64,000 bases of DNA from an uncultured Alphaproteobacteria bacterium (GTDB taxonomy: Bacteria > Pseudomonadota > Alphaproteobacteria > CAAHEQ01 > UBA3637). Position numbers and translations under genes: made by a program. Where the stretch lies: assembly GCA_944392145.1 (NCBI GenBank), contig CALXVS010000003.1, positions 7,594 through 71,593 on the forward strand, read 5' to 3'. Shown one piece after another: positions 12,379 through 24,443 of the stretch. Numbering within the stretch: the first letter of the stretch is position 1; the number at the start of each line of letters is the position of its first letter. The notes below the pieces were generated by a model. That model did no database searches, had not been told where the DNA came from, and saw only the letters and a program-made list of their open reading frames with translations.

Positions 12379-15300
12379 ATGTCGGAACGTTTTTTCGGCA
12401 ATAAACCGTTTTTGCCGTTATTGTTGTCATATTTTATTTCGGCAGTTAATGAAAATTTTATTCGGATTGTATTTTTATTTTTCGTGACTTATCAAATGAC
12501 GCAAACAAGTCCCGCTTTTTTTGTGTCGGCCGTTATTCTTTATTTTCTTTTTTTCTGTATCGGTGCTGTGTGTTCAGGACAGATTGCTGATAAAATTTCA
12601 AAAGTGAAATTTTTGGTATTTGTTCGGCTGTTTGAAGTTATGATTATGGCTATGGCGCTTTTAAGTATATTTATGGATTCACGGTTACTATTGACCTTGA
12701 TTGCGGCGGCTATGGGATTTGCTAATGCTTGTTTGCGGGTTGTTAATTATTCCGTTATGCCTCAGCTTGTTGACAGGAATCATTTAAATACCGGTAATAT
12801 TTGGATGAAAGTGGCGACATTTTTTTCTGCCGGGTGTGCGGCTCTTTTATTGACATCAATTTTAAAATTTAATGCCGCATATCAAGTGATTTGTTTGATT
12901 GGACTGATTTTGGCAGTGGTCAGCTTATTTGTTACGTTGAAACTCCCGTTAACAGATCCGGTTGATCCCGACAGCCGGATCAGTAAAAATCCGATTGCTG
13001 TTTTTGATTTTGTGGCGCGACAAATTAAAAATCGGTTTGATTTATGGACGTATTTGGTTGGTATCGCGTGGTTTTGGATATTGGGAACACTTGTTTTTGT
13101 TTTTTCTGCTGAATATGGCCATTCTGTTTTAAATGCTCGTTGGTCAACGGTTATGTTTTTATCCACAGGCGTTTTTACATTCGGATTTATAGGGGGGGGC
13201 TATTTATACCGAAAATTATCGGCTACTGGAAATTTCAGCGGACATATTTGTTTGACAACATTGGCTATTTCTGTTTTTTTATGTGATTTAGTTTTCGCGG
13301 GATTTTCAATTGAAACAATGCAAGCCCCAAAAGCCGTTTCGGTTATTCGGATGTTTAGTGAGTTTGAATATATTCGGGTGCTGATTGATGTGGCAGCATT
13401 GGGAATATTGGCCGGATTATATATTATTCCTTTTTATACGTTGCTTCAGCTAGGAACACCAGAAAGAATTTTGGGACGGGTAATGTCCTTTTCGGGAATG
13501 GTAAATGCCTTATCTGTCGCTGGTGCTTTTTTAGTGGTTTTAAGTTTTAAAATCTTGTCTTTTTCAGTCTTGGATATTTTATTATGTTTCGGCATTGTAA
13601 ATATTTTTGTTGGTATTTACATGGTACGTTTGTTGCCGATTCAAACACGTCGGCGGGTGTTTCGGGTTGTATTCAAGTTATTGTTTCATGCGCGCATAAA
13701 AGGTCTTGAGAACCTTAAAAAGGCAGGAGATAAGGCATTAATTATCACCAATCATACATCTTATTTAGATGTGTTATTGATTTCAACTTTTATTGATCGG
13801 CCGATTGTTTTTGCTGTCAGTGATCAGTTGATTGACAAAACAGTGGTTAAATTTATGACCAATTTAGTGGATGTGCGTCCTTTGGATCCAATGAGCCCGT
13901 TTGCCGTTAAAGCAATGGTGGAGGAATTAAAGAAAAATCAGTTGTGCATGATCTTTACCGAAGGCATTATTGAAGGCGGTAACACACGGATGAAAATTTA
14001 TGAAGGGCCGGCGATGATGGCTTTAAAGGCAGAGGCTCCGATTGTTCCAATTCGGATTGACGGTGCCGATCAAACGTTTTTTTCCCGTGTTCTTAAAACA
14101 AAAGCGCCGTTTCGCTTTTTCCCGACCATAACATTGACGGTTAAAAAACCGGTATTTTTTGATTTGCCCGATGATTTAACAACACGTGAATGCCGTGAAA
14201 AATCAAGTTCTATGTTATTTGATGTGTTGTCTGATATGACATTTGAAAATTATCGGATTAATCGCACCGTTTTCGGAGCGTTAGCCGATTCAATGCAAAT
14301 GGTCGGGCGATTTAAACGTGTTTTGGAAGATACCGATCGAAAACCGTTGTCATTCTGGGCCGTGTTTATGCGTTCTTTCATTTTAGGGCGTTTGTTGAAA
14401 CGAGCGTTGTCGGATGAAAAAGAAGTTGGATTGATGGTGCCGACATCTAATACATGTGCCCTTTGCTTTTTGGGGTTACATGCTTTTGGGAAAACGCCGG
14501 CAATGATCAATTTTACATCTGGTCCCAAACAGGTGATCGCAACATGCCGCACGGTGGGATTGAAAACAATTGTAACGGCTAAAAAAGTTGTATTATTGGC
14601 TAAATTAGAGGGGCTTGTCAGTGCTGTTGAAGAAGCGGGCATTCGGGTGCTATATTTAGAAGATTTAAAACCGACGCTCTCCTTTACCGATAAAATGATC
14701 GGTATCATCGGCGGGATGTTCCCAAAACTTCTTTATCGTAAGGTTGAAGCTACGCAAACGCCTGAAGATCCGGCGGTTATTTTATTTACTTCCGGTTCAG
14801 AAGGATTCCCGAAAGCGGTTTTCCTGACACACCGAAATTTGTTGGCAAACTGCTATCAGATTCCGTCGCGGTTTGATGTGTATCCGACAGACGTATTTTT
14901 AAACTGCTTGCCGATGTTCCATTCTTTCGGATTGGGGGCCGGTACGATTTTACCCCTGTTATTGGGGGTAAAAACTGTTTTGTATCCGACACCGTTGCAC
15001 TATCGGATTATTCCGGAAATTTGTGCTTCGGCCAAAGCAACAATTTTTTTCGGAACGGATACGTTCTTGGCCGGGTATGCAAAATGTGCCAATCCGTATG
15101 ATTTTAACAGTTTAAGAATTGTTGCTGCGGGGGCAGAAAAAGTCAAAGATGAAACGCGTAAAATTTGGGCCGAAAAATTCGGCGTGCGACTCTTTGAGGG
15201 GTATGGTGCGACCGAATGTTCACCGTTTATTTCCGTGAATACCTTTTTACATCAAAAGAAAGGATCCGTCGGCCGGTTATTGCCGCATATTGAATATCGT

Positions 15301-15795
15301 TTAAAGCCGGTTGAGGGTATTAAAGAGGGGAAGGAGTTGTGGATTAAAGGGCCCAATATTATGAAAGGTTATATGCGTTATGACAAGCCGTTGGTATTGG
15401 ATCCGCCTGCAGACGGTTGGTATGATACGGGTGATATTGTTGACATTGATGCGGAAGGGTATATTTTTATTAAAGGACGATGCAAACGGTTTGCCAAAAT
15501 CGGAGGTGAAATGGTATCACTTTTAGCCGTTGAGCAAGTCATTGATAAACGCTGGCCTGGGTTTGTTTTTGGGGCAGTTAGTATCCCCGACGCCCGTAAG
15601 GGGGAGCAAATTGTTTTGATTACAACATGTCCGGATGTGAATAGAGAGGAAATGGTTGTCGCTTTTAAAGCCGCCGGTGTGACCGAGTTAGGGCTCCCTT
15701 CAAAAGTGATTGTGACCAATACGCCGCCCTTGCTGGGAACGGGTAAATTTGATTATGTCCTGGCCAAAGAGCTGGCGCAAAAAGGTGTGGCGTGA
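12379..15795 (+). CDS. aas: tri-domain fusion: MFS lysophospholipid transporter (LplT-like) + 1-acyl-glycerol-phosphate-type acyltransferase (PlsC) + acyl-ACP synthetase (AMP-binding); Aas-like
   Basis: 1138 aa. N-terminal about 420 aa has 12 TM helices. Middle domain has HxxxxD acyltransferase context (ITNHTSYLDV). C-terminal AMP-binding motifs (LFTSGSEGFPKAV; YGATEC; GWYDTGD; KIGGEMVSL). Confidence 0.8.
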   Translation: MSERFFGNKPFLPLLLSYFISAVNENFIRIVFLFFVTYQMTQTSPAFFVSAVILYFLFFCIGAVCSGQIADKISKVKFLVFVRLFEVMIMAMALLSIFMDSRLLLTLIAAAMGFANACLRVVNYSVMPQLVDRNHLNTGNIWMKVATFFSAGCAALLLTSILKFNAAYQVICLIGLILAVVSLFVTLKLPLTDPVDPDSRISKNPIAVFDFVARQIKNRFDLWTYLVGIAWFWILGTLVFVFSAEYGHSVLNARWSTVMFLSTGVFTFGFIGGGYLYRKLSATGNFSGHICLTTLAISVFLCDLVFAGFSIETMQAPKAVSVIRMFSEFEYIRVLIDVAALGILAGLYIIPFYTLLQLGTPERILGRVMSFSGMVNALSVAGAFLVVLSFKILSFSVLDILLCFGIVNIFVGIYMVRLLPIQTRRRVFRVVFKLLFHARIKGLENLKKAGDKALIITNHTSYLDVLLISTFIDRPIVFAVSDQLIDKTVVKFMTNLVDVRPLDPMSPFAVKAMVEELKKNQLCMIFTEGIIEGGNTRMKIYEGPAMMALKAEAPIVPIRIDGADQTFFSRVLKTKAPFRFFPTITLTVKKPVFFDLPDDLTTRECREKSSSMLFDVLSDMTFENYRINRTVFGALADSMQMVGRFKRVLEDTDRKPLSFWAVFMRSFILGRLLKRALSDEKEVGLMVPTSNTCALCFLGLHAFGKTPAMINFTSGPKQVIATCRTVGLKTIVTAKKVVLLAKLEGLVSAVEEAGIRVLYLEDLKPTLSFTDKMIGIIGGMFPKLLYRKVEATQTPEDPAVILFTSGSEGFPKAVFLTHRNLLANCYQIPSRFDVYPTDVFLNCLPMFHSFGLGAGTILPLLLGVKTVLYPTPLHYRIIPEICASAKATIFFGTDTFLAGYAKCANPYDFNSLRIVAAGAEKVKDETRKIWAEKFGVRLFEGYGATECSPFISVNTFLHQKKGSVGRLLPHIEYRLKPVEGIKEGKELWIKGPNIMKGYMRYDKPLVLDPPADGWYDTGDIVDIDAEGYIFIKGRCKRFAKIGGEMVSLLAVEQVIDKRWPGFVFGAVSIPDARKGEQIVLITTCPDVNREEMVVAFKAAGVTELGLPSKVIVTNTPPLLGTGKFDYVLAKELAQKGVA

Positions 15796-15831
15796 CACGT
15801 TGTTTTTATTGTATAAGAAAAGGAGAAAAGT

Positions 15832-16254
15832 ATGGCAAAACAAAGAACTTTTTCAATTATTAAACCCGATGCAACCAATCGGAATTTAACCGGTGCAATT
15901 AATGCCAAAATTGAAGCTGCCGGCTTAAGGATTATTGCCCAAAAACGTATTAAAATTACGAAAGAACAGGCTGAAACGTTTTATGCCGTGCATGCGGGCA
16001 AGCCATTTTTTGATGGATTGGTTGCGTTTATGTGTTCGGCCCCTGTTGTTGTTCAAGTTTTGGAAGGAGAAGATGCTATTGCATCTTATCGGACTTTAAT
16101 GGGAAAGACCGATCCGGCCGAAGCGGCGCCGGGGACGATTCGAGCCGAATTTGCTGTCAGCAAGGGGGAAAATTCCGTTCATGGTTCCGATTCGCCGGAA
16201 AATGCAGCCATTGAAATTGCACAATTTTTCAGTGGGAATGAAATTGTCGGATAG
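15832..16254 (+). CDS. ndk: nucleoside diphosphate kinase
   Basis: 140 aa with the active-site region NSVHGSDS. Confidence 0.9.
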
Positions 16255-16278
16255 TTTCTTTTAAACTCTGTGTCATTA

Positions 16279-16325
16279 TCGGATGCGCCCTCGGCTTTTA
16301 AAGCCGAGGGCGCCGGATCGTTTTT
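16279..16325 (+). terminator. rho-independent terminator after ndk
   Basis: GC-rich hairpin gcgccctcggc-ttttaaa-gccgagggcgc followed by a TTTTT run. Confidence 0.7.
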
Positions 16326-16399
16326 AAACGGAATAATTCGGTTGAAAAATATTTATTTTTTCCGTATACTTTACTTATAAAATAAAAAGGCTTTTTTTG

Positions 16400-17323
16400 A
16401 TGTCCGCACATATTCCCGTTTTGTTGCAAGAAGTATTATCCATGTTAGAGGCTGCCCGCGGCGGTGTGTTTGTTGATGCAACTTTTGGGGCAGGGGGATA
16501 CACCCGCGGGATTTTAAGTGCCGCTCCTTGTAATCGGGTTATTGCGTTTGACCGCGATCCGAATGCTGTCCCTGTGGCACAAGAGGTGGCGCATAAATGG
16601 CCGAATCGTTTTTCATTCATTCATGATTGTTTTGGTGAAATGGCGCGGTATGTGACCCAACCGGTTGACGGTATCGTTTTTGATTTAGGGGTTTCATCTA
16701 TGCAGATTGATAAGCCCGAACGCGGTTTTTCCTTTCGCTTAAATGGACCGTTGGATATGCGTATGGGGCAAGCCGGTATTTCCGCGAAAGAAGTTGTTAA
16801 TGAGTTTGATGAAACGCGTCTGGCCGATATTTTATATCGTTTCGGTGAAGAACGGGCAGCGTATCGTATTGCGCGCGCCCTTGTTCGGGCGCGACAGGAA
16901 AAACCGATTGTAACAACAGCGCAGTTAGCTGAAATCATTCATCATGTTATGCCACGACCGAAAGACGGTTCGGACAGTGCTATGCGATCGTTTCAGGCAA
17001 TCCGTATTTTTGTAAATGATGAGTTGGGGGAATTGCAACGGGCGTTAGAGGCTTCCCCGTCTTTACTGAAACCCGGGGGACGGTTGGTTGTTGTATCATT
17101 TCATTCATTAGAAGATCGTCTGGTCAAATCATTTATGAACTTAAACGGTGGGTTAGCAGCCCGCCCGAATAAATATCTGCCCGAGACAACTTCGCAACCG
17201 GTTCTTTTTCAGGTATTGACAAAAAAACCAATTGTCCCTACACCGGCAGAAGTGACGCATAACCCAAGAGCGCACAGTGCAAAAATGCGAGTGGCGCAAA
17301 GAACAAAGAGTGCATTGCCATGA
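16400..17323 (+). CDS. rsmH: 16S rRNA (cytosine1402-N4)-methyltransferase
   Basis: MSAHIPVLL..., SAM-binding motif FVDATFGAGGYTRGIL. ATG 16400; the track start 16397 is a TTG. First gene of the dcw cluster. Confidence 0.9.
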   Translation: MSAHIPVLLQEVLSMLEAARGGVFVDATFGAGGYTRGILSAAPCNRVIAFDRDPNAVPVAQEVAHKWPNRFSFIHDCFGEMARYVTQPVDGIVFDLGVSSMQIDKPERGFSFRLNGPLDMRMGQAGISAKEVVNEFDETRLADILYRFGEERAAYRIARALVRARQEKPIVTTAQLAEIIHHVMPRPKDGSDSAMRSFQAIRIFVNDELGELQRALEASPSLLKPGGRLVVVSFHSLEDRLVKSFMNLNGGLAARPNKYLPETTSQPVLFQVLTKKPIVPTPAEVTHNPRAHSAKMRVAQRTKSALP

Positions 17324-17670
17324 AGCGGCTTGTTTGGAATGTCTTTTTTATTTTGATTGCCGTTTTTTCCGGTGTGCGTGCTTTTATGGTCAAATATGAC
17401 GTGATAGCCAAAGAAGATCAGCTGAAAGAAATTTATCGGCAAATTTTGGATGATAAGCGGGAAATCCATATGTTACAGGCAGAGTGGATGTATTTAAACG
17501 ATCCACAGCGCTTAAAGCAATTGATTGCGGCACAAACGGTGTTTGCACCTGTTTTAAGAACACAAATCGTGTCTGTTGCTGACTTGCCGGATATACCGGC
17601 GCCGATTCCTGTATCTAAACCGGCATTTTTTACATCGGATAAAGAGGTATCGGAACATGTGGCCCCGTAG
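17320..17670 (+). CDS. ftsL: cell division protein FtsL (alphaproteobacterial type)
   Basis: 116 aa, single N-terminal TM, coiled-coil-like middle. Position between rsmH and ftsI. The start overlaps the rsmH stop (ATGA). Confidence 0.6.
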   Translation: MKRLVWNVFFILIAVFSGVRAFMVKYDVIAKEDQLKEIYRQILDDKREIHMLQAEWMYLNDPQRLKQLIAAQTVFAPVLRTQIVSVADLPDIPAPIPVSKPAFFTSDKEVSEHVAP

Positions 17671-19399
17671 AAAGAAAGAGGTGTTTTATTATCCGGGTGT
17701 TGAGGTTTCTTTAAAGGTCAAAGATAAATACCGGTGCTTGGATCGTGTAACATTAAAAGCCGTTCAAACAGCGCGAAGCCGGATGCTCCTTTTGATGTGT
17801 GGTGTTGGTCTTTTTTTTGGTATTATTGGATTGCGATTGTTTCAATTAACAGTTTTGGACTATCGGGCACGACCGACACCGACATTGTCAACCGAAACGA
17901 CGTTTGCCTTAAAACGACAGGATATTTTGGATCGGCACGGCACTTTATTGGCGACGGGATTGCCGACCATTGATATTTATATGGAGAAAGGGGAGGCGCG
18001 TTCTTCTGAAGAAATTGCACGTCAGTTGGTTAAAATTTTCCCTGATTTAAGTTTTAAATTTGTTATGAAACAGTTGTCTGATGCGTCCCGATTTCGTTAT
18101 ATTAAGCGAAATATTACACCCAAAGAGCGCAGTCGTCTGAATTGGTTGGGATATTATTTTTTAAAAGAATCATCAGGCGAAAAACGTGTTTATCCGCAAG
18201 GAAATTTATTTTCACATTTAATCGGTGCGGTTGATCCGGATAACAACGGTATTTCCGGATTAGAAAAGTCATTAGAACCCCTTTTATCCGAATCGCCCGT
18301 TTTTTTATCACTTGACTTGGCGGTTCAGGAAATGACGCGCTCTGTTTTGGAAAAAAGTATTCGGACATATCAAGCCGACGGTGCATTGGGCTTGGTTATG
18401 GATGTGCGTAACGGTGAAATATTAGCATCGGTTTCTTTACCGGATTTTAATCCGAATCTGCCACGGGAAGATGTAACGGACCCGAAATATTTTAACAAAC
18501 CGGTTTCGGGGACGTACGAAATGGGTTCTGTTTTTAAATTATTTAACACAGCTATGGCGTTGGAATATGGGGATATTCGTCCGCAAAGCACATTTGATGC
18601 CTCGGAACCCTTGAAAATCGGGCAAAAAACAATCACAGATTTTCATGGTCAAGCCCGCATGTTGAGTGTTGCAGAAGTTTTGATGCATTCTTCAAACATT
18701 GCAACAGCCCAAATTGCTTTGCGCAGCGGTTATGAAAAACAAAAAGCATTTTTAGAAACGTTCCGTTTCAATGAAAGACTGTCCTTAAAATTACCCGAAA
18801 GAGCGGCTCCGTCGTTTCCGCGAGAAAAAAAGTGGGCAAACATCACATCGGCTAATGTTGGGTTCGGCTATGGGTTGTCCGTAACACCGATGCACGTGAT
18901 TGCCGGTGTTGCGGCTCTTGTAAACGGAGGGATATATCATATGCCGACATTTATACGCGGCGGGAATGACGGGACGGTTGAATATCAAGTGTTGGCCGAA
19001 AAAAATTCCAATGTTTTGCGGCATATGATGTGGGCGGTTTTGAATTGGAATGCCAAAGAGGACAGTATTGAACACCAATATGCCGTTGGCGGAAAGACGG
19101 GATCGGCTAATTTATTGAAAGACGGTCGTTACATAGAAGGGGCTTTACGCACAACATTTGTTGCCGCGTTCCCGATGACAGCTCCGCAATATGCGGTGTT
19201 GGTTATGTTGGAAAATCCCAGAAAAATTAAAGAAACATTTATGATGAATGCTGCCGGATGGAATGCCAAACCGACCGGATTACAGCTTATTTCACAAATC
19301 GCACCGTATTTGGGGGTTGCCCCTGTCGGATCATGGTCACAACCGGCTTATATTGAACAGGCGATTGAGCGATCCAAAAATTATAAAAAGAAGAGGTAA
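17657..19399 (+). CDS. ftsI: peptidoglycan D,D-transpeptidase FtsI (PBP3)
   Basis: Transpeptidase motifs: SxxK context (GSVFKLF), SSN (HSSN) and KTG (GGKTGSA). Start moved to ATG 17657, which has an aaagagg RBS; the 17576 start was rejected because it overlaps ftsL by 95 nt. Confidence 0.85.
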   Translation: MWPRRKKEVFYYPGVEVSLKVKDKYRCLDRVTLKAVQTARSRMLLLMCGVGLFFGIIGLRLFQLTVLDYRARPTPTLSTETTFALKRQDILDRHGTLLATGLPTIDIYMEKGEARSSEEIARQLVKIFPDLSFKFVMKQLSDASRFRYIKRNITPKERSRLNWLGYYFLKESSGEKRVYPQGNLFSHLIGAVDPDNNGISGLEKSLEPLLSESPVFLSLDLAVQEMTRSVLEKSIRTYQADGALGLVMDVRNGEILASVSLPDFNPNLPREDVTDPKYFNKPVSGTYEMGSVFKLFNTAMALEYGDIRPQSTFDASEPLKIGQKTITDFHGQARMLSVAEVLMHSSNIATAQIALRSGYEKQKAFLETFRFNERLSLKLPERAAPSFPREKKWANITSANVGFGYGLSVTPMHVIAGVAALVNGGIYHMPTFIRGGNDGTVEYQVLAEKNSNVLRHMMWAVLNWNAKEDSIEHQYAVGGKTGSANLLKDGRYIEGALRTTFVAAFPMTAPQYAVLVMLENPRKIKETFMMNAAGWNAKPTGLQLISQIAPYLGVAPVGSWSQPAYIEQAIERSKNYKKKR

Positions 19400-19402
19400 A
19401 GC

Positions 19403-22219
19403 ATGTTATTATCAAAATTAGCCACGTATTTAGGTCTTGCTGATCAGGTCAAAACGGATGTTGAAATAACCGGTCTTTCAAACGATTCGCGCCGGATAAA
19501 AGAGGGATATTTGTTTATTGCCGTTACCGGAGAAAAAAATGACGGAAAGGCTTTTATTGCCCAAGCCATTGCTGCGGGTGCCGTTGCGGTTTTAAGTGAT
19601 TCGGATACAGATGTGTCTGTCCCGGTATTAAAAGTGGCAGATGTGCGGTTAACAGCAGCACGGTTAGCGGCTTTTTTCTATTCATCGGATCAAATGATGA
19701 AAGTGGCCGTTACGGGAACAAACGGAAAAACATCTACCGTTTTTTATGTGCAACAAATCATGAATGCCGCTGGTATTTTATCAGCCAGTTTGGGAACGGT
19801 CGGTGTGGCCTCTCCCGTTTTTCGGCAAGACGGCAGTATGACGACACCGGACAGCATTCAGTTAAATCAAACTTTGCAGACTTTAAGTGAAAAAGGGGTT
19901 CGGGTAACGGCATTGGAAGCATCATCTCACGGATTGGATCAAGGCCGGTTGGAAGGATTGTGTTTTCAGGCGGCCGCTTTTACGAATTTGACACTGGATC
20001 ACTTGGATTATCACAAAACCATGGAACAGTATTTTGAGGCCAAGAAAAAACTGTTTTCAACTTATTTGAAAAAAGACGGAACCGCGGTTTTGAATGCGGA
20101 TATTCCCGAATATGCGGCATTAAAAGAAATTTGTGACAAACAAGGTATCCGCATTTTGTCTTACGGGATAAAGGGGGCTGATTTAACAATTATATCACAG
20201 AAACTTGTTCCGACGGGACAAGATGTCGTTTTACGATTGTTGGGAACAACATATGCGATTCATTTGAATATTTTGGGGGATTTTCAACTGATGAATTTTT
20301 TGGCAGCCGTCGGATTATGTCTGGGGGCGGGCTTAACGATTGATCGGATTATGGAAATTGCTCCGACACTTCAAGCACCGACGGGACGCATGGAAGCGGT
20401 TTGCCGACTTGAAAACGGGGCCCAAATTTTTGTTGATTATGCGCACACACCGGATGCATTGTCCCGTGTTTTAACTTCTTTAAAAGCACATGTTGCCGGC
20501 CGATTGATTTGTTTGTTCGGATGTGGCGGAAACAGAGATACATCAAAGCGACCTCAAATGGGACAAATTGCCGAACAAACGGCAGATGTTGTCTATATTA
20601 CCGATGATAATCCCCGATTTGAAGATCCGGCGGCTATTCGTGCCCAAATTGCGGCAGCCTGCCCGAAAGGAATTGTAATAGATAACCGATCTCGTGCTGT
20701 TTTTGAAGCGGTCAGTTCTTTAAAAGAAAACGATGTGTTGGTTTTGGCAGGAAAAGGGCATGAATCCGGTCAAACGATTCAAGGAGTTTCTTTCGCTTAT
20801 AACGATGCGGTGGAAGCTAAACTGGCTGCTTTAAGTCAGGACAAGCTGCCCTTGTGGTCTGCTGGGGAGCTGTCTTTAGCCTTATCGGTGCCTGTCGCAT
20901 CGGAAATCGCCGTGTTCGGTATTTCACGCGATACCCGAACACTGTGTATCGGTGATTTGTTTGTTGCGTTAAAAGGGGAGCAAACAGACGGACATCGTTT
21001 TGTTTATGAGGCAGTTCATCGCGGAGCGGCTGCGTGTTTGGTGGATCATGTGGTTGAAGCGGTTCCCTTGAATAAACAAATTGTTGTGCCTGACACGATG
21101 GCGGCATTAGATGCTTTGGCGCGCTATGCCCGTATGCGCAGTGATGCTGTTTTTATTGGGATAACGGGCAGTTCCGGCAAAACAACGACAAAAGAAATGT
21201 TAAAAGCCTGTTTATCCCGGCAAGGTTTAACACATGCGACTGAAGGAAATTATAATAATCAGTTGGGTGTTCCCCTAACGTTGGTGCAAATGCCACGAGA
21301 AACACAATTTGCCATTATTGAAATGGGGATGAACCATTTTGGTGAGTTGATGTATTTATCGGATTTAGTGCGTCCCCAAGTATCAGTCATTACGACCGTT
21401 GGGGCTGCACACCGGGCTTATTTTAAAAGCGATGCCGATATCGCAACAGCCAAATCGGAAATTTTTGAGTTTCAAGATATGGATGGAACCGCTTTGTTAA
21501 ATAAAGAAAATCCCTTTTTTGATCAAGTAGCAGCGGCGGCACATCAGCATGGCATCAAGCATGTTATTTCTTTCGGGGAAAGAGGAGATATTTTTGCCGT
21601 TTGTGAGCGAATCCGTGGCGATAAAACTTTTGTAGAAGCGTGTGTCCGCGGGCAAAATGTGACATATAACCTGAATTATTTGGGACATCACTTTGTGTTG
21701 GATTCATTAGCCGTATTGGGGGCAGTGGAAGCGGCCGGTGCCAGTGTTCCGGCGGCCGCATCGGTTTTGGAAACGGTTTTTCCGATGTCAGGGCGGGGTG
21801 CCAAAGAAATCATTACCTTGCCTGATGGAGAAGAAGTGGTTTTGATTGATGACGCTTATAATGCGAATCCGGCCTCTATGAAAGCGTCGTTAAAAACATT
21901 GGGGCTGATGCCTTGTGCGGGTCGGCGTATTGCCGTTTTGGGGGATATGTTGGAATTGGGTGAAACGGCTCTTGACATCCATCTTGATTTAAGGCAAACT
22001 CTCCTCACGCAACAAATAGATCAGGTTTTTGTGACCGGAGAGCTGATGGGTGCGTTATTCAAAACACTTCCGACGGCACTTCAAGGAGCAGCGGTTTCAT
22101 CGGCCGGTGATTTAATCCCGATATTGAAACGCGAATTGCGTCCGAACGATGTTGTTTTGGTCAAGGCATCGCATGGTTCCGGTTTAACTGCCGTTGTTCA
22201 GGGACTTAAAGGAGTTTAA
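19403..22219 (+). CDS. murEF: fused MurE-MurF: UDP-MurNAc-L-Ala-D-Glu--meso-DAP ligase fused in frame to UDP-MurNAc-tripeptide--D-Ala-D-Ala ligase
   Basis: One continuous 938-aa ORF. Residues 1 to about 475 are MurE (GTNGKTST, DNPR, GKGHE C-terminus). Residues about 480-938 are MurF (GITGSSGKTTTKEM, DDAYNANP). A short linker ...AALSQDKLPLWSAGEL... joins them with no stop codon. Confidence 0.85.
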   Translation: MLLSKLATYLGLADQVKTDVEITGLSNDSRRIKEGYLFIAVTGEKNDGKAFIAQAIAAGAVAVLSDSDTDVSVPVLKVADVRLTAARLAAFFYSSDQMMKVAVTGTNGKTSTVFYVQQIMNAAGILSASLGTVGVASPVFRQDGSMTTPDSIQLNQTLQTLSEKGVRVTALEASSHGLDQGRLEGLCFQAAAFTNLTLDHLDYHKTMEQYFEAKKKLFSTYLKKDGTAVLNADIPEYAALKEICDKQGIRILSYGIKGADLTIISQKLVPTGQDVVLRLLGTTYAIHLNILGDFQLMNFLAAVGLCLGAGLTIDRIMEIAPTLQAPTGRMEAVCRLENGAQIFVDYAHTPDALSRVLTSLKAHVAGRLICLFGCGGNRDTSKRPQMGQIAEQTADVVYITDDNPRFEDPAAIRAQIAAACPKGIVIDNRSRAVFEAVSSLKENDVLVLAGKGHESGQTIQGVSFAYNDAVEAKLAALSQDKLPLWSAGELSLALSVPVASEIAVFGISRDTRTLCIGDLFVALKGEQTDGHRFVYEAVHRGAAACLVDHVVEAVPLNKQIVVPDTMAALDALARYARMRSDAVFIGITGSSGKTTTKEMLKACLSRQGLTHATEGNYNNQLGVPLTLVQMPRETQFAIIEMGMNHFGELMYLSDLVRPQVSVITTVGAAHRAYFKSDADIATAKSEIFEFQDMDGTALLNKENPFFDQVAAAAHQHGIKHVISFGERGDIFAVCERIRGDKTFVEACVRGQNVTYNLNYLGHHFVLDSLAVLGAVEAAGASVPAAASVLETVFPMSGRGAKEIITLPDGEEVVLIDDAYNANPASMKASLKTLGLMPCAGRRIAVLGDMLELGETALDIHLDLRQTLLTQQIDQVFVTGELMGALFKTLPTALQGAAVSSAGDLIPILKRELRPNDVVLVKASHGSGLTAVVQGLKGV

Positions 22220-22224
22220 TCAGT

Positions 22225-23307
22225 ATGTTTTATTTTTTGTCTTTTTTATCAGACGAATTTTCCTGGCTGAATATTTTTCGTTATATCACGTTCCGAACGG
22301 GAGGTGCTTTGTTGACGGCATTTGCCATCGGACTGATTGCAGGACCACGGTTTATCGCGTGGCTTAAATCAAAACAGGCCAATGGTCAACCAATCCGTTC
22401 CAATGGACCGGCAACGCATTTGGTCAAACAAGGAACACCGACAATGGGTGGGTTGTTGATTTTGATTGCCATACTGATTGCAACACTGTTGTGGGCCAAT
22501 TTGTTAAACCCGTATGTATGGGTGCTTTTATTCGTATTATTGGGATTCGGCCTGGCCGGGTTTTTGGATGATTATTTGAAATTGACGGAAAATAATTCCA
22601 AAGGTGTTTCGGGATGGCAAAAAATCGGATTGCAGGCAGCGGTCAGCATTATTGCCTGTGTATGGATGATTTCTTTGGAAAACGGATCTATGGGAACAAC
22701 CCTGACGTTACCGTTTTTTAAAAATATTTTTTTGGATTTAAGTTATTTTTACATCCCGTTTGTTCTGGTGGTTTTTATCGGGACCTCAAATGCGGTCAAT
22801 CTGACGGACGGATTAGACGGATTGGTCAGTATTCCGGTTATTATGACGACTTTTGTGTTTATGGTAATTGCCTATTTGGTCGGGCGAATTGATTATGCGA
22901 CTTATTTACATGTTTATTATGTGGCCGGTGCTGGGGAAATGGTTGTCTTCTGCGGTGCTTTGATCGGAGGTGTTTTGGGATTTTTATGGTTTAACACACA
23001 TCCGGCTCGTGTCTTTATGGGGGATACGGGCTCTTTGGCACTGGGGGGTGTTTTGGGTGCACTGGCCGTTGCAACGAAACATGAGTTATTATTATTGATT
23101 GCCGGGGGTATTTTTGTTTTAGAGGCCTTATCGGATATTATTCAGGTTGGTTCTTATAAACTGCGGGGCAAGCGTGTTTTTTTAATGGCACCGCTGCATC
23201 ATCACTTTGAAAAAAAAGGGTGGTCGGAAACAACGGTTGTCATCCGGTTTTGGATTGTATCTATTTTGATGGCGTTGGTGGCTTTAGCTACTTTAAAAAT
23301 CAGGTAA
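22225..23307 (+). CDS. mraY: phospho-N-acetylmuramoyl-pentapeptide transferase
   Basis: 360 aa, 10 TM, conserved motifs NAVNLTDGLDGL and HHHFE. Confidence 0.9.
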   Translation: MFYFLSFLSDEFSWLNIFRYITFRTGGALLTAFAIGLIAGPRFIAWLKSKQANGQPIRSNGPATHLVKQGTPTMGGLLILIAILIATLLWANLLNPYVWVLLFVLLGFGLAGFLDDYLKLTENNSKGVSGWQKIGLQAAVSIIACVWMISLENGSMGTTLTLPFFKNIFLDLSYFYIPFVLVVFIGTSNAVNLTDGLDGLVSIPVIMTTFVFMVIAYLVGRIDYATYLHVYYVAGAGEMVVFCGALIGGVLGFLWFNTHPARVFMGDTGSLALGGVLGALAVATKHELLLLIAGGIFVLEALSDIIQVGSYKLRGKRVFLMAPLHHHFEKKGWSETTVVIRFWIVSILMALVALATLKIR

Positions 23308-23312
23308 TATAA

Positions 23313-24443
23313 ATGAGCGTAACAAAAATACGAACATTTTTTGAGGTACATTATCGCTCTTTGGATAAAGGGCTGTTGCGCGGTATGTTTGTTTTGATGT
23401 TGTTTGGGGTTTTTTTGACATTTGCCGCCTCTCCCGGAGCTGCCGAACGGACAGGGACCGAATCGTTCCATTTTATAAAAAAACAACTGATTTTTTTCCC
23501 GCCGATGATTTTGGTTCTGTTTTTTATGACGTTTCTTCCGTTAAAATGGATTCGGATTGTTTGTTTTGGGCTTTTATTTGCCTCTTTGATTGCCATGGTT
23601 TATGTCTTGTTTTTCGGGGTTGAAATCAAAGGCGCGCGTCGGTGGATCAATCTGGGTGGTTTGGGAGTGCAGCCTTCTGAATTTGTCAAACCGACATTCG
23701 CCGTTATTTGTGCATGGTTTTTGGCATCCGGTCGGCTGATTCGTCGTTTTCACGGATATATCGCATCTTTTGTTTTGTGGGCATTGATCAGTGTGTTGTT
23801 GTATTGTCAGCCGGATAACGGGATGTTATTTACGGTGACGGCGATTTTTTGTGTTGAATTATTTGTAGCGGGAATTCCGATAAAATTGGTTGGTATTTTA
23901 ATAGCGGCATTAGCGGGATTGGTCTGTTTCGTGTATCGTTTTCAAAGTCATGTTCAAATGCGCATTGACAGTTTTTTCAATTCGTTATTCGGATCAGGGG
24001 CCGATACGGCTTATCAGGTGCGTAAGTCTATGGAAACATTGCATAATGCCGGATGGCTTGGCAAAGGCCCGGGAGAAGGCATTGTCAAGTATGAATTACC
24101 CGATGCGCATACGGATTTTATTATAGCCGTTGCAGCGGAAGAATTTGGTTTTTTTCTGACCATGTTGTTGGTTGGTGTTTTTTGTTTTGTTATTTTGCGC
24201 GGTTTTGTTTTAATCCGACGTGAAAATAATTATTTTTGTCAAATTGCGGTTGCTGGTTTGTTGACACAAATCGCATTTCAGGCTATTGTAAACATGGGAT
24301 CAACGTTAAATTTGTTGCCGACCAAAGGTATGACATTGCCGTTTATTTCTTATGGTGGTTCATCATTGGTCTCTGTCGGATTGGCGTTTGGCATTATTTT
24401 GAGATTGACACGGTATCACACATTAAGCAGAGGTCTTGAATGA
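23313..24443 (+). CDS. ftsW: SEDS-family peptidoglycan glycosyltransferase FtsW
   Basis: 376 aa polytopic with SEDS motifs (QPSEFVKP; AAEEFGF; LPTKGMTLPFISYGGSS). Position between mraY and murG. Confidence 0.85.
   Translation: MSVTKIRTFFEVHYRSLDKGLLRGMFVLMLFGVFLTFAASPGAAERTGTESFHFIKKQLIFFPPMILVLFFMTFLPLKWIRIVCFGLLFASLIAMVYVLFFGVEIKGARRWINLGGLGVQPSEFVKPTFAVICAWFLASGRLIRRFHGYIASFVLWALISVLLYCQPDNGMLFTVTAIFCVELFVAGIPIKLVGILIAALAGLVCFVYRFQSHVQMRIDSFFNSLFGSGADTAYQVRKSMETLHNAGWLGKGPGEGIVKYELPDAHTDFIIAVAAEEFGFFLTMLLVGVFCFVILRGFVLIRRENNYFCQIAVAGLLTQIAFQAIVNMGSTLNLLPTKGMTLPFISYGGSSLVSVGLAFGIILRLTRYHTLSRGLE

Follow-up and report, generated by a model that had tools for sequence, protein, structure and literature searches.

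In an uncultured, gut-associated alphaproteobacterial lineage, murE and murF are, with high probability, joined in a genuine, vertically inherited fusion that encodes one predicted bifunctional polypeptide. The fused gene was found in a stretch of 64,000 nucleotides (the window), where ORF listing gave one unbroken ORF (19403..22219, + strand) that starts with ATG, encodes 938 aa and has neither a stop nor a frame change. Pfam finds two stretches each of Mur_ligase, Mur_ligase_M and Mur_ligase_C in the 938-aa protein, and NCBIfam places both murE and murF on it. The original prediction, made from the letters alone, of an in-frame MurE-MurF fusion of this length is therefore borne out.

The features of the gene and its immediate neighbours are given in Table 1. 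The order ftsI-murEF recurs in a near-identical contig, and murC, murB, ddl, murG and ftsW are each separate genes in the window. In this clade murD is absent from its usual slot between mraY and ftsW. Within the 64-kb window, tblastn with the MurD proteins of Thalassospira and Paracaedibacter returned only the paralogues murE, murF and murC, and a further ten large ORFs of the window, scanned with NCBIfam, contained no murD. The region upstream of the cluster (15700-16500) had no Rfam match to an RNA element. The whole window contains two tRNAs only.

Table 1. Features of the fused murE-murF gene and its neighbours, in window coordinates
Feature	Residues or motif	Coordinates	Strand	Remarks
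ftsI (PBP3-type transpeptidase)		17576..19399	+	Directly upstream; stop 3 nt before the murEF start; NCBIfam PBP and FtsI models
murE-murF fused gene		19403..22219	+	938 codons plus stop; single ORF with doubled Mur ligase domain set
MurE portion	1-477	19403..20833	+	Predicted UDP-MurNAc-L-Ala-D-Glu:meso-DAP ligase
MurE ATP-binding P-loop	T104-T110, TGTNGKT	19712..19732	+	T104, G105, T106, N107, G108 and K109 invariant in 67 clade sequences
MurE DNPR motif	D402-R405	20606..20617	+	Invariant in the clade (67 sequences)
Junction residues	478-483, SQDKLP	20834..20851	+	End of the former MurE tail plus start of the former MurF N-terminus
MurF portion	484-938	20852..22216	+	Predicted UDP-MurNAc-tripeptide:D-Ala-D-Ala ligase
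Retained MurF N-terminal cap	484-505, LWSAGELSLALSVPVASEIAVF	20852..20917	+	Alignment, and helix 487-494 in the model
MurF ATP-binding P-loop	T588-T594, TGSSGKT	21164..21184	+	T588, G589, S590, G592, K593 and T594 invariant
mraY		22225..23307	+	Directly downstream; TIGR00445 at 421.5 bits; predicted user of the MurF-half product

Taken whole, the fused protein has the same best match in PDB by sequence (8F5D, E 1.9e-119) and, for its structural model, by fold (8F5D again, Foldseek E 1.6e-63 over 815 aligned columns). NF008896, the model for bifunctional MurE/MurF, aligns with residues 21-936 over model positions 28-957 of 965 (E 5.3e-259), at 861.9 bits against a curated cut-off of 1023 that is not reached. 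Judged by these scores the protein has the NF008896 architecture, yet lies outside that equivalog as curated. The AlphaFold2 model comprises six folded domains (pLDDT 93.4, pTM 0.83), with no segment below a pLDDT of 50.

Each half was also identified separately. The MurE half scores 651.7 bits with NF001124 (cut-off 476) and 545 bits with TIGR01085 (murE; residues 19-473), far over the cut-off, and 333 bits with the L-Lys ligase model NF010628, under its cut-off of 536. Its fold matches Staphylococcus aureus MurE (4C13; TM 0.89, 2.7 A). The DNPR at residues 402-405 aligns with the DNPR of the Escherichia coli and Bordetella pertussis MurE proteins; this motif is the mark of meso-DAP specificity, from the structure of E. 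coli MurE. Together, the motif and the NF001124 score above cut-off identify this half as a predicted meso-DAP-adding MurE. The MurF half scores 513.5 bits with TIGR01143 (murF; residues 510-933), above the cut-off of 288.6, which makes it a predicted D-Ala-D-Ala-adding enzyme, and its fold matches Acinetobacter baumannii MurF (4QF5, TM 0.87). Both P-loops had been called in the original prediction, and they are present as GTNGKT (105-110) and GSSGKT (589-594), invariant in 67 clade members. Also invariant in the 67 sequences, across the two halves, are DNPR, GKGHE, H200/K214, H670/K684 and DxxNANP (D817/N820-P823).

The two enzymes meet without a linker and with the MurF cap kept. Translation across the junction reads ...AKLAAL-SQDKLP-LWSAGELSLALS..., and the join, correctly estimated near nt 20810-20850 in the original prediction, is at residues 478-483 (nt 20834-20851); SQDKLP as the joining residues can be read directly from the junction DNA. 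The description of a complete MurE, about six residues and a complete MurF also holds: 55 residues separate GKGHE from D[ST]R, close to the ~56 obtained by concatenating the MurE tail and MurF N-terminus of an unfused alphaproteobacterial pair. The MurE C-terminal helix (468-480) is confidently modelled by AlphaFold2, and the junction itself has a pLDDT of 94-95. The cap region (484-505) aligns with free-standing Pseudomonas aeruginosa MurF (4CVK) from residue 8 onward, and its motif LW..EL..AL is kept across the clade and matches the N-termini of unfused alphaproteobacterial MurF proteins.

The window appears to be a metagenome-type assembly, its relatives are all MAGs, and most unfused alphaproteobacterial relatives have a 4-nt ATGA overlap between the genes, at which an error of one base would bring both into one frame; a 1-nt indel from assembly or sequencing might in this way have falsely joined two genes. 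Conservation of the fusion and of its junction effectively refutes such an artefact, to which we give almost no weight. Exactly this protein is encoded by 6 contigs that were assembled independently and come from NCBI, Logan and ENA; the junction DNA is identical in an independent Logan contig; and the 90% cluster of the protein has 21 members, the other 20 also being nearly all 938 aa. Over 120 clusters of proteins (48-99% identity, 92-100% coverage) share the fusion, with lengths of 914-954 aa, except for three shorter entries (863-906 aa); relatives at 86%, at 73% and down to 48% identity are fused with essentially equal junction length. Close relatives do not have separate murE and murF genes: a single ORF is found in 7/7 of the nearest GTDB reference genomes, all gut, rumen or faecal 'Alphaproteobacteria bacterium' MAGs, and the >120 clusters agree in length and have an almost gap-free junction. 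Two genes are found in Thalassospira, Paracaedibacter, Geminicoccaceae, Rhodobacteraceae and Hyphomonas. Of 9 junction DNA sequences compared, none retains a vestige of either a start codon or a stop codon. These junction sequences bear as well on whether free MurF is also, or mainly, made from an internal start. Here W485 is preceded by a TTG codon that has AGGA ~10 nt upstream, a possible weak start; relatives have TTG, CTG, GTT, TTA or CTT at this place and no conserved sequence upstream of it, and the 9 sequences have no conserved start codon or Shine-Dalgarno remnant at the junction. Promoter and terminator scans around it gave results no different from shuffled sequence, promoter-like sites being no commoner. 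Across 120 clusters the sequence of the junction varies, while its length is constant bar three single insertions or deletions, and this near-invariant length argues for selection on a continuous polypeptide. The internal start was rejected on this evidence and seems very improbable.

A fused protein could also be monofunctional, with one half a decayed, non-catalytic remnant serving, for example, as a scaffold like plant MurE-like PAP11. Such MurE-like proteins without ligase function exist, plastid PAP11 is among the sequence and fold matches, and no second murE or murF lies within the 64-kb window. The chance of this is nevertheless minute: both halves score over the curated murE and murF cut-offs, their P-loops and substrate- or metal-site motifs are invariant in sequences down to 48% identity, and in the predicted structure both fold like closed, active ligases. 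Horizontal gain of a ready-made chimera from Betaproteobacteria is the alternative to independent fusion of two resident genes. In its favour, fused murE-murF occurs in gut Sutterella and Aphodousia (four loci), Sutterellaceae that share the habitat, and the NF008896 alignment runs end to end. We consider it most unlikely and reject it on the trees of both halves. Neighbour-joining trees were built for each half with 50 bootstraps; the alphaproteobacterial sequences, whether fused or not, come together as a single clade in 50/50 and 49/50 bootstraps for the two halves, and the gut alphaproteobacterial chimeras group with the betaproteobacterial ones in 0/50 for either half. For both halves, identity to the unfused genes of Alphaproteobacteria is 44-48%, as against 33-39% to betaproteobacterial chimeras, the junction spacing of 55 differs from the 59 of Sutterellaceae and the 32 of B. 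pertussis, and the flanking dcw gene order is kept in the alphaproteobacterial clade. Both halves thus nest within unfused Alphaproteobacteria, and an origin independent of the betaproteobacterial chimeras is well supported by these sequence comparisons. Monophyly of the fused gut group has moderate support only (32/50, MurE tree).

Such an independent fusion could have arisen by a small step. ATGA overlaps between murE and murF are present at five of the unfused loci; elsewhere the arrangement differs: the two genes of Thalassospira lie 60 nt apart, and those of Paracaedibacter share one reading frame and are separated by nothing but the murE stop codon. The ancestor would have had the 4-nt ATGA stop/start overlap of most unfused alphaproteobacterial relatives, and we infer that a minor mutation which restored the frame, for instance deletion of a single base at this overlap, joined murE and murF. 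An intact MurE C-terminus would then meet an intact MurF N-terminus, with neither a linker nor a deletion. A wider reading, which we offer tentatively and regard as rather doubtful when taken together, is that the fusion was an independent event at the root of a diverse, uncultured gut and rumen alphaproteobacterial lineage, that it represents a third, cap-retaining and linker-less junction type with a MurE-MurF interface unlike that of B. pertussis, and that the coincident removal of murD hints at a lineage-specific reorganisation of the co-expression or assembly of cytoplasmic Mur enzymes.

By analogy with the characterised chimera, both activities probably reside in the one polypeptide. The MurE half would add meso-diaminopimelate to UDP-MurNAc-L-Ala-D-Glu and the MurF half would then add D-Ala-D-Ala, giving UDP-MurNAc-pentapeptide, which MraY, the product of the next gene, would transfer to the lipid carrier. 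Fusion probably forces the two consecutive enzymes to be made in a 1:1 ratio and to be co-localised. The B. pertussis MurE-MurF has both activities, and their coupling brought no catalytic gain in vitro (Laddomada et al. 2019, PMC6420597); for that reason a faster coupled reaction is not expected here.

The ~940-aa proteins of this clade are named only 'MurE' in public NCBI records, because the curated bifunctional model NF008896 misses them, and murF may therefore be scored in error as missing when the metabolism of these gut alphaproteobacteria is reconstructed automatically. Our literature search on Alphaproteobacteria found no earlier description specific to this clade. Sequences without an identified species were left out of the survey of Shirakawa et al. 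(2023, PMC10214165), which therefore probably did not cover this MAG clade. The fusion adds one more well-supported independent origin of a MurE-MurF chimera, and the recurrent fusion of these two enzymes supports the published view of MurE and MurF as neighbours that work within one complex. The current picture of peptidoglycan synthesis stays as it was. Shirakawa et al. proposed that room for the MurE C-terminus requires opening of the MurF cap (PMC10214165), and the cap-retaining junction provides a natural comparator for this proposal.

The kind of fusion is already known: it has a curated family model, has been studied biochemically and is represented by a crystal structure. The premise of the original prediction that murE and murF are usually separate is true, but the pair is also the most common Mur chimera and has been characterised (Shirakawa et al. 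2023, PMC10214165; PDB 8F5D). With the B. pertussis MurE-MurF of 8F5D the window protein shares gene order, head-to-tail arrangement of six domains, absence of a long linker, position in the dcw cluster between ftsI and mraY and presumably the same two activities, demonstrated for B. pertussis; identity is ~33% and the origins are separate. In B. pertussis the MurF cap is missing, with ~5 residues from the MurE end to S-DTR and 32 from GKGHE to DTR, whereas in the window protein the cap is kept, and the corresponding values are 28 and 55. It does not belong to the 'cap-less' 8F5D subtype, in which there is no MurF cap and the MurE C-terminus lies over the MurF hydrophobic patch; here the cap helix (487-494) is present. 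Whole-chain superposition on 8F5D gave TM 0.42/0.50 and an rmsd of 15.5 A over 815 columns, part of which open and closed domain states could explain, and the inter-enzyme geometry of the model may differ from that of the solved chimera. The NF008896 (PRK11929) equivalog shares the near full-length alignment and differs in the score under its cut-off. The MurE-MurF chimeras of Stappia and Pseudovibrio, from the same class and with the same two enzymes in the same order, have disordered linkers of 200-300 residues (Shirakawa 2023, Fig. 3, PMC10214165), against ~6 junction residues here that are former termini; the 938-aa protein has no long linker of that type. The unfused pairs of Hyphomonas, Rhodobacteraceae and Geminicoccaceae are closest to each half by identity (44-48%) and phylogeny, and their termini are equal in length, including the LW..A..A..G N-terminus of MurF, but they have two frames with a stop/start overlap where the window has one ORF. 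The other known Mur chimeras, MurC-Ddl of Chlamydia, MurC-MurB of Verrucomicrobia, MurG-MurC of Actinobacteria and MurD-FtsW (Shirakawa 2023, PMC10214165), likewise join neighbouring dcw genes, but with different partners.

The murE-murF reading frame is unbroken: the DNA across the junction (20700-20960) holds no stop and no frame change, and its translation reads ...AKLAAL SQDKLP LWSAGELSLALS.... Three kinds of Mur ligase domain are each matched twice in Pfam, and NCBIfam places murE on residues ~14-476 (TIGR01085, 545 bits; NF001124, 651.7 bits against a cut-off of 476) and murF on residues 510-933 (TIGR01143, 513.5 bits, cut-off 288.6). The original description of a MurE-MurF fusion was right in all details.

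Features of the dcw region, in window coordinates
Feature	Position	Strand	Description
1138-aa ORF	12379-15795	+	full-length match to acyl-[ACP]--phospholipid O-acyltransferase / acyl-ACP synthetase fusion family
ndk-like ORF	15832-16254		140 aa, precedes rsmH in place of mraZ
murEF	19403..22219	+	one ORF, ATG start, 938 aa
mraY	22225-23307		directly followed by ftsW
ftsW	23313-24443		directly after mraY

The fusion is real and no assembly artefact. A protein search gave more than 120 clusters matching the window protein at 48-99% identity and 92-100% coverage, with lengths of 914-954 aa except for three at 863-906 aa. In an alignment of the window protein with 120 sequences, junction length is constant save for three single insertions/deletions; the junction residues drift, and a (P)LW..EL..AL motif just downstream is conserved. 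The exact protein is present on six contigs (NCBI, Logan and ENA), and the 90% cluster around it comprises 21 distinct members, almost all of 938 aa. Gene order and junction codons are also the same in a near-identical but independent Logan contig (L081). Since tblastn can join adjacent genes, frame continuity was checked at each of 80 reference-genome loci. Fused murE-murF was found at 14, including a single continuous frame in all seven of the closest (L001-L007); these MAGs, designated "Alphaproteobacteria bacterium", come from samples of human-gut type, from sheep rumen and from horse faeces. Their shared fusion and its conservation across the clade support the interpretation as a true in-frame joining of the two genes.

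NCBI names the ~940-aa fusions of this clade of gut-associated MAGs (P0031, P0032, P0036, P0048 and others) just MurE (UDP-N-acetylmuramoyl-L-alanyl-D-glutamate--2,6-diaminopimelate ligase). This is consistent with the score of the window protein against NF008896, 861.9 bits, under the curated cut-off of 1023. Because of these names and the low score, automated reconstructions of clade genomes may show murF as missing.

Between the MurE GKGHE motif and the MurF D[ST]R motif the spacing is 55 residues in the window, L001-L004 and L007. In L006 it is 54, and no D[ST]R motif could be located in L005. The value is 59 in Sutterellaceae and 32 in Bordetella pertussis (computed by hand from alignment residue numbering). 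Unbroken murE-murF ORFs are likewise present in a Ruminococcus sp. MAG (Firmicutes, L017) and in two MAGs of delta type, Syntrophaceae UBA2251 (L013) and a deltaproteobacterial MAG (L059), with differing spacings of 71, 72 and 83 (range 71-83). Concatenating an unfused alpha pair gives ~56, from a MurE tail of ~26 after GKGHE and a MurF N-terminus of ~30 before D[ST]R. By its close match to this value the window protein is an end-to-end join with zero linker and zero deletion that keeps the MurF N-terminal cap region; residues 484-505 align with free P. aeruginosa MurF starting at its residue 8.

In most unfused alpha relatives (e.g. L032, L033, L034, L037 and L047) the ATG of murF and the stop of murE share a 4-nt overlap (ATGA), and the two genes are read in different frames. 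We propose that one base was lost at such an ancestral overlap, which would have fused the frames while keeping both termini, because the predicted result matches the observed spacing. Separate translation of MurF finds no support, since no remnant start codon or Shine-Dalgarno is conserved in the junction DNA of clade sequences and promoter-like and terminator-like sites in the murEF region are at background level only. In many Clostridia, and in Paracaedibacter, a stop-bounded murF reading frame starts right after the murE stop in the same frame, so that loss of that stop alone would give one continuous ORF. This suggests that murE-murF fusion is mutationally easy and recurrent.

Neighbour-joining trees were built separately for MurE and MurF halves (89 taxa, 50 bootstraps each). 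Alphaproteobacterial sequences, fused and unfused together, form one clade in 50/50 (MurE) and 49/50 (MurF) replicates; the gut-alpha chimeras form a clade of their own in 32/50 and 47/50, and group with the betaproteobacterial Sutterellaceae chimeras in 0/50 replicates of either tree. The window halves have 44-48% identity to unfused alpha genes, versus 33-40% to chimeras of other phyla or classes. By these comparisons the gut-alpha fusion arose independently of the beta chimeras.

Across 67 aligned clade sequences, invariant positions include the P-loop T104-K109, D199/H200, K214, DNPR 402-405 and GKGHE 450-454 in the MurE half, and the P-loop T588-T594, H670, K684 and D817/N820-P823 in the MurF half. 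The His-to-Lys spacing is 14 in both, which we take to fit the carbamylated lysine position of Mur ligase structures. DNPR, and preference for the DAP-ligase over the L-Lys-ligase model, indicate a probably meso-DAP-specific MurE half. An AlphaFold2 model from the same alignment (mean pLDDT 93.4, pTM 0.83) has no disordered segments in its 938 aa, and its junction is confident (blocks 471-490 at pLDDT 94-95): the MurE C-terminal helix (468-480) is followed by a turn of four residues and a helix (487-494). The MurE half superposes on S. aureus MurE 4C13 (TM 0.89, 2.7 A) and the MurF half on A. baumannii MurF 4QF5 (TM 0.87). The whole model superposes on the B. pertussis chimera structure 8F5D at TM 0.42/0.50 and 15.5 A only; the domains may be open in one and closed in the other, the two enzymes may be oriented differently, or both may apply.

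The cluster runs ndk-like ORF, rsmH, ftsL, ftsI, murEF, mraY, ftsW, murG, murC, murB, ddl, probable ftsQ, ftsA, ftsZ; ftsQ is assigned from position alone, with no family match in the NCBIfam scan. The usual place of murD is between mraY and ftsW, as in Thalassospira (L008) and Paracaedibacter (L009). ORF order shows this slot without murD in the window, L001-L003, L006, L007 and L081. No murD was detected within the 64-kb window, where only weak paralogue matches to murE, murF and murC appeared, or at the eight loci from the clade (L001-L007 and L081), which span 9-15 kb each; presumably it has relocated elsewhere in the genome. Upstream of rsmH (15832-16397) mraZ is absent and the gap has no Rfam elements; the ORF there resembles nucleoside diphosphate kinase, judged by its motif …NSVHGSDS…. 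The 1138-aa ORF encodes a further multi-domain fusion, one whose type is already curated; it scores 1149 bits, just below the NF005291 cut-off of 1349. GC skew is positive in almost all 2-kb bins (1-64000), with cumulative skew climbing monotonically to 4.25, and the large ORFs are mostly on the + strand; together these are consistent with the entire window lying on the leading strand of one replichore.

Very probably, a single polypeptide performs two successive reactions in the cytoplasmic synthesis of peptidoglycan precursors, ahead of MraY. In this predicted bifunctional enzyme the MurE half and then the MurF half would act in sequence, passing the product to the MraY encoded directly downstream, and fusion would force equal stoichiometry and proximity. 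Any kinetic benefit is hypothetical, and none was seen with the B. pertussis chimera: its two activities are both present and independent of each other, with no apparent catalytic advantage from coupling in vitro (Laddomada et al. 2019, PMC6420597).

Given that study, the curated NCBIfam equivalog "bifunctional MurE/MurF" (NF008896) and the survey of Shirakawa et al. (PMC10214165), the MurE-MurF chimera is already well known as a kind. Such chimeras are 96.4% proteobacterial and 65.7% betaproteobacterial, the rest including alpha, gamma and delta classes, and include linker-less forms as well as forms whose linkers reach ~300 residues (Stappia, Pseudovibrio); the B. pertussis protein lacks the MurF N-terminal cap, and its MurE C-terminus lies over the hydrophobic patch of MurF instead (Shirakawa et al., PMC10214165). 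The window protein differs from this cap-less subtype in keeping the cap region, and from the long-linker forms of other Alphaproteobacteria in having zero linker. It is an independently arisen, cap-retaining chimeric Mur ligase, new within a well-characterised class and of low novelty.
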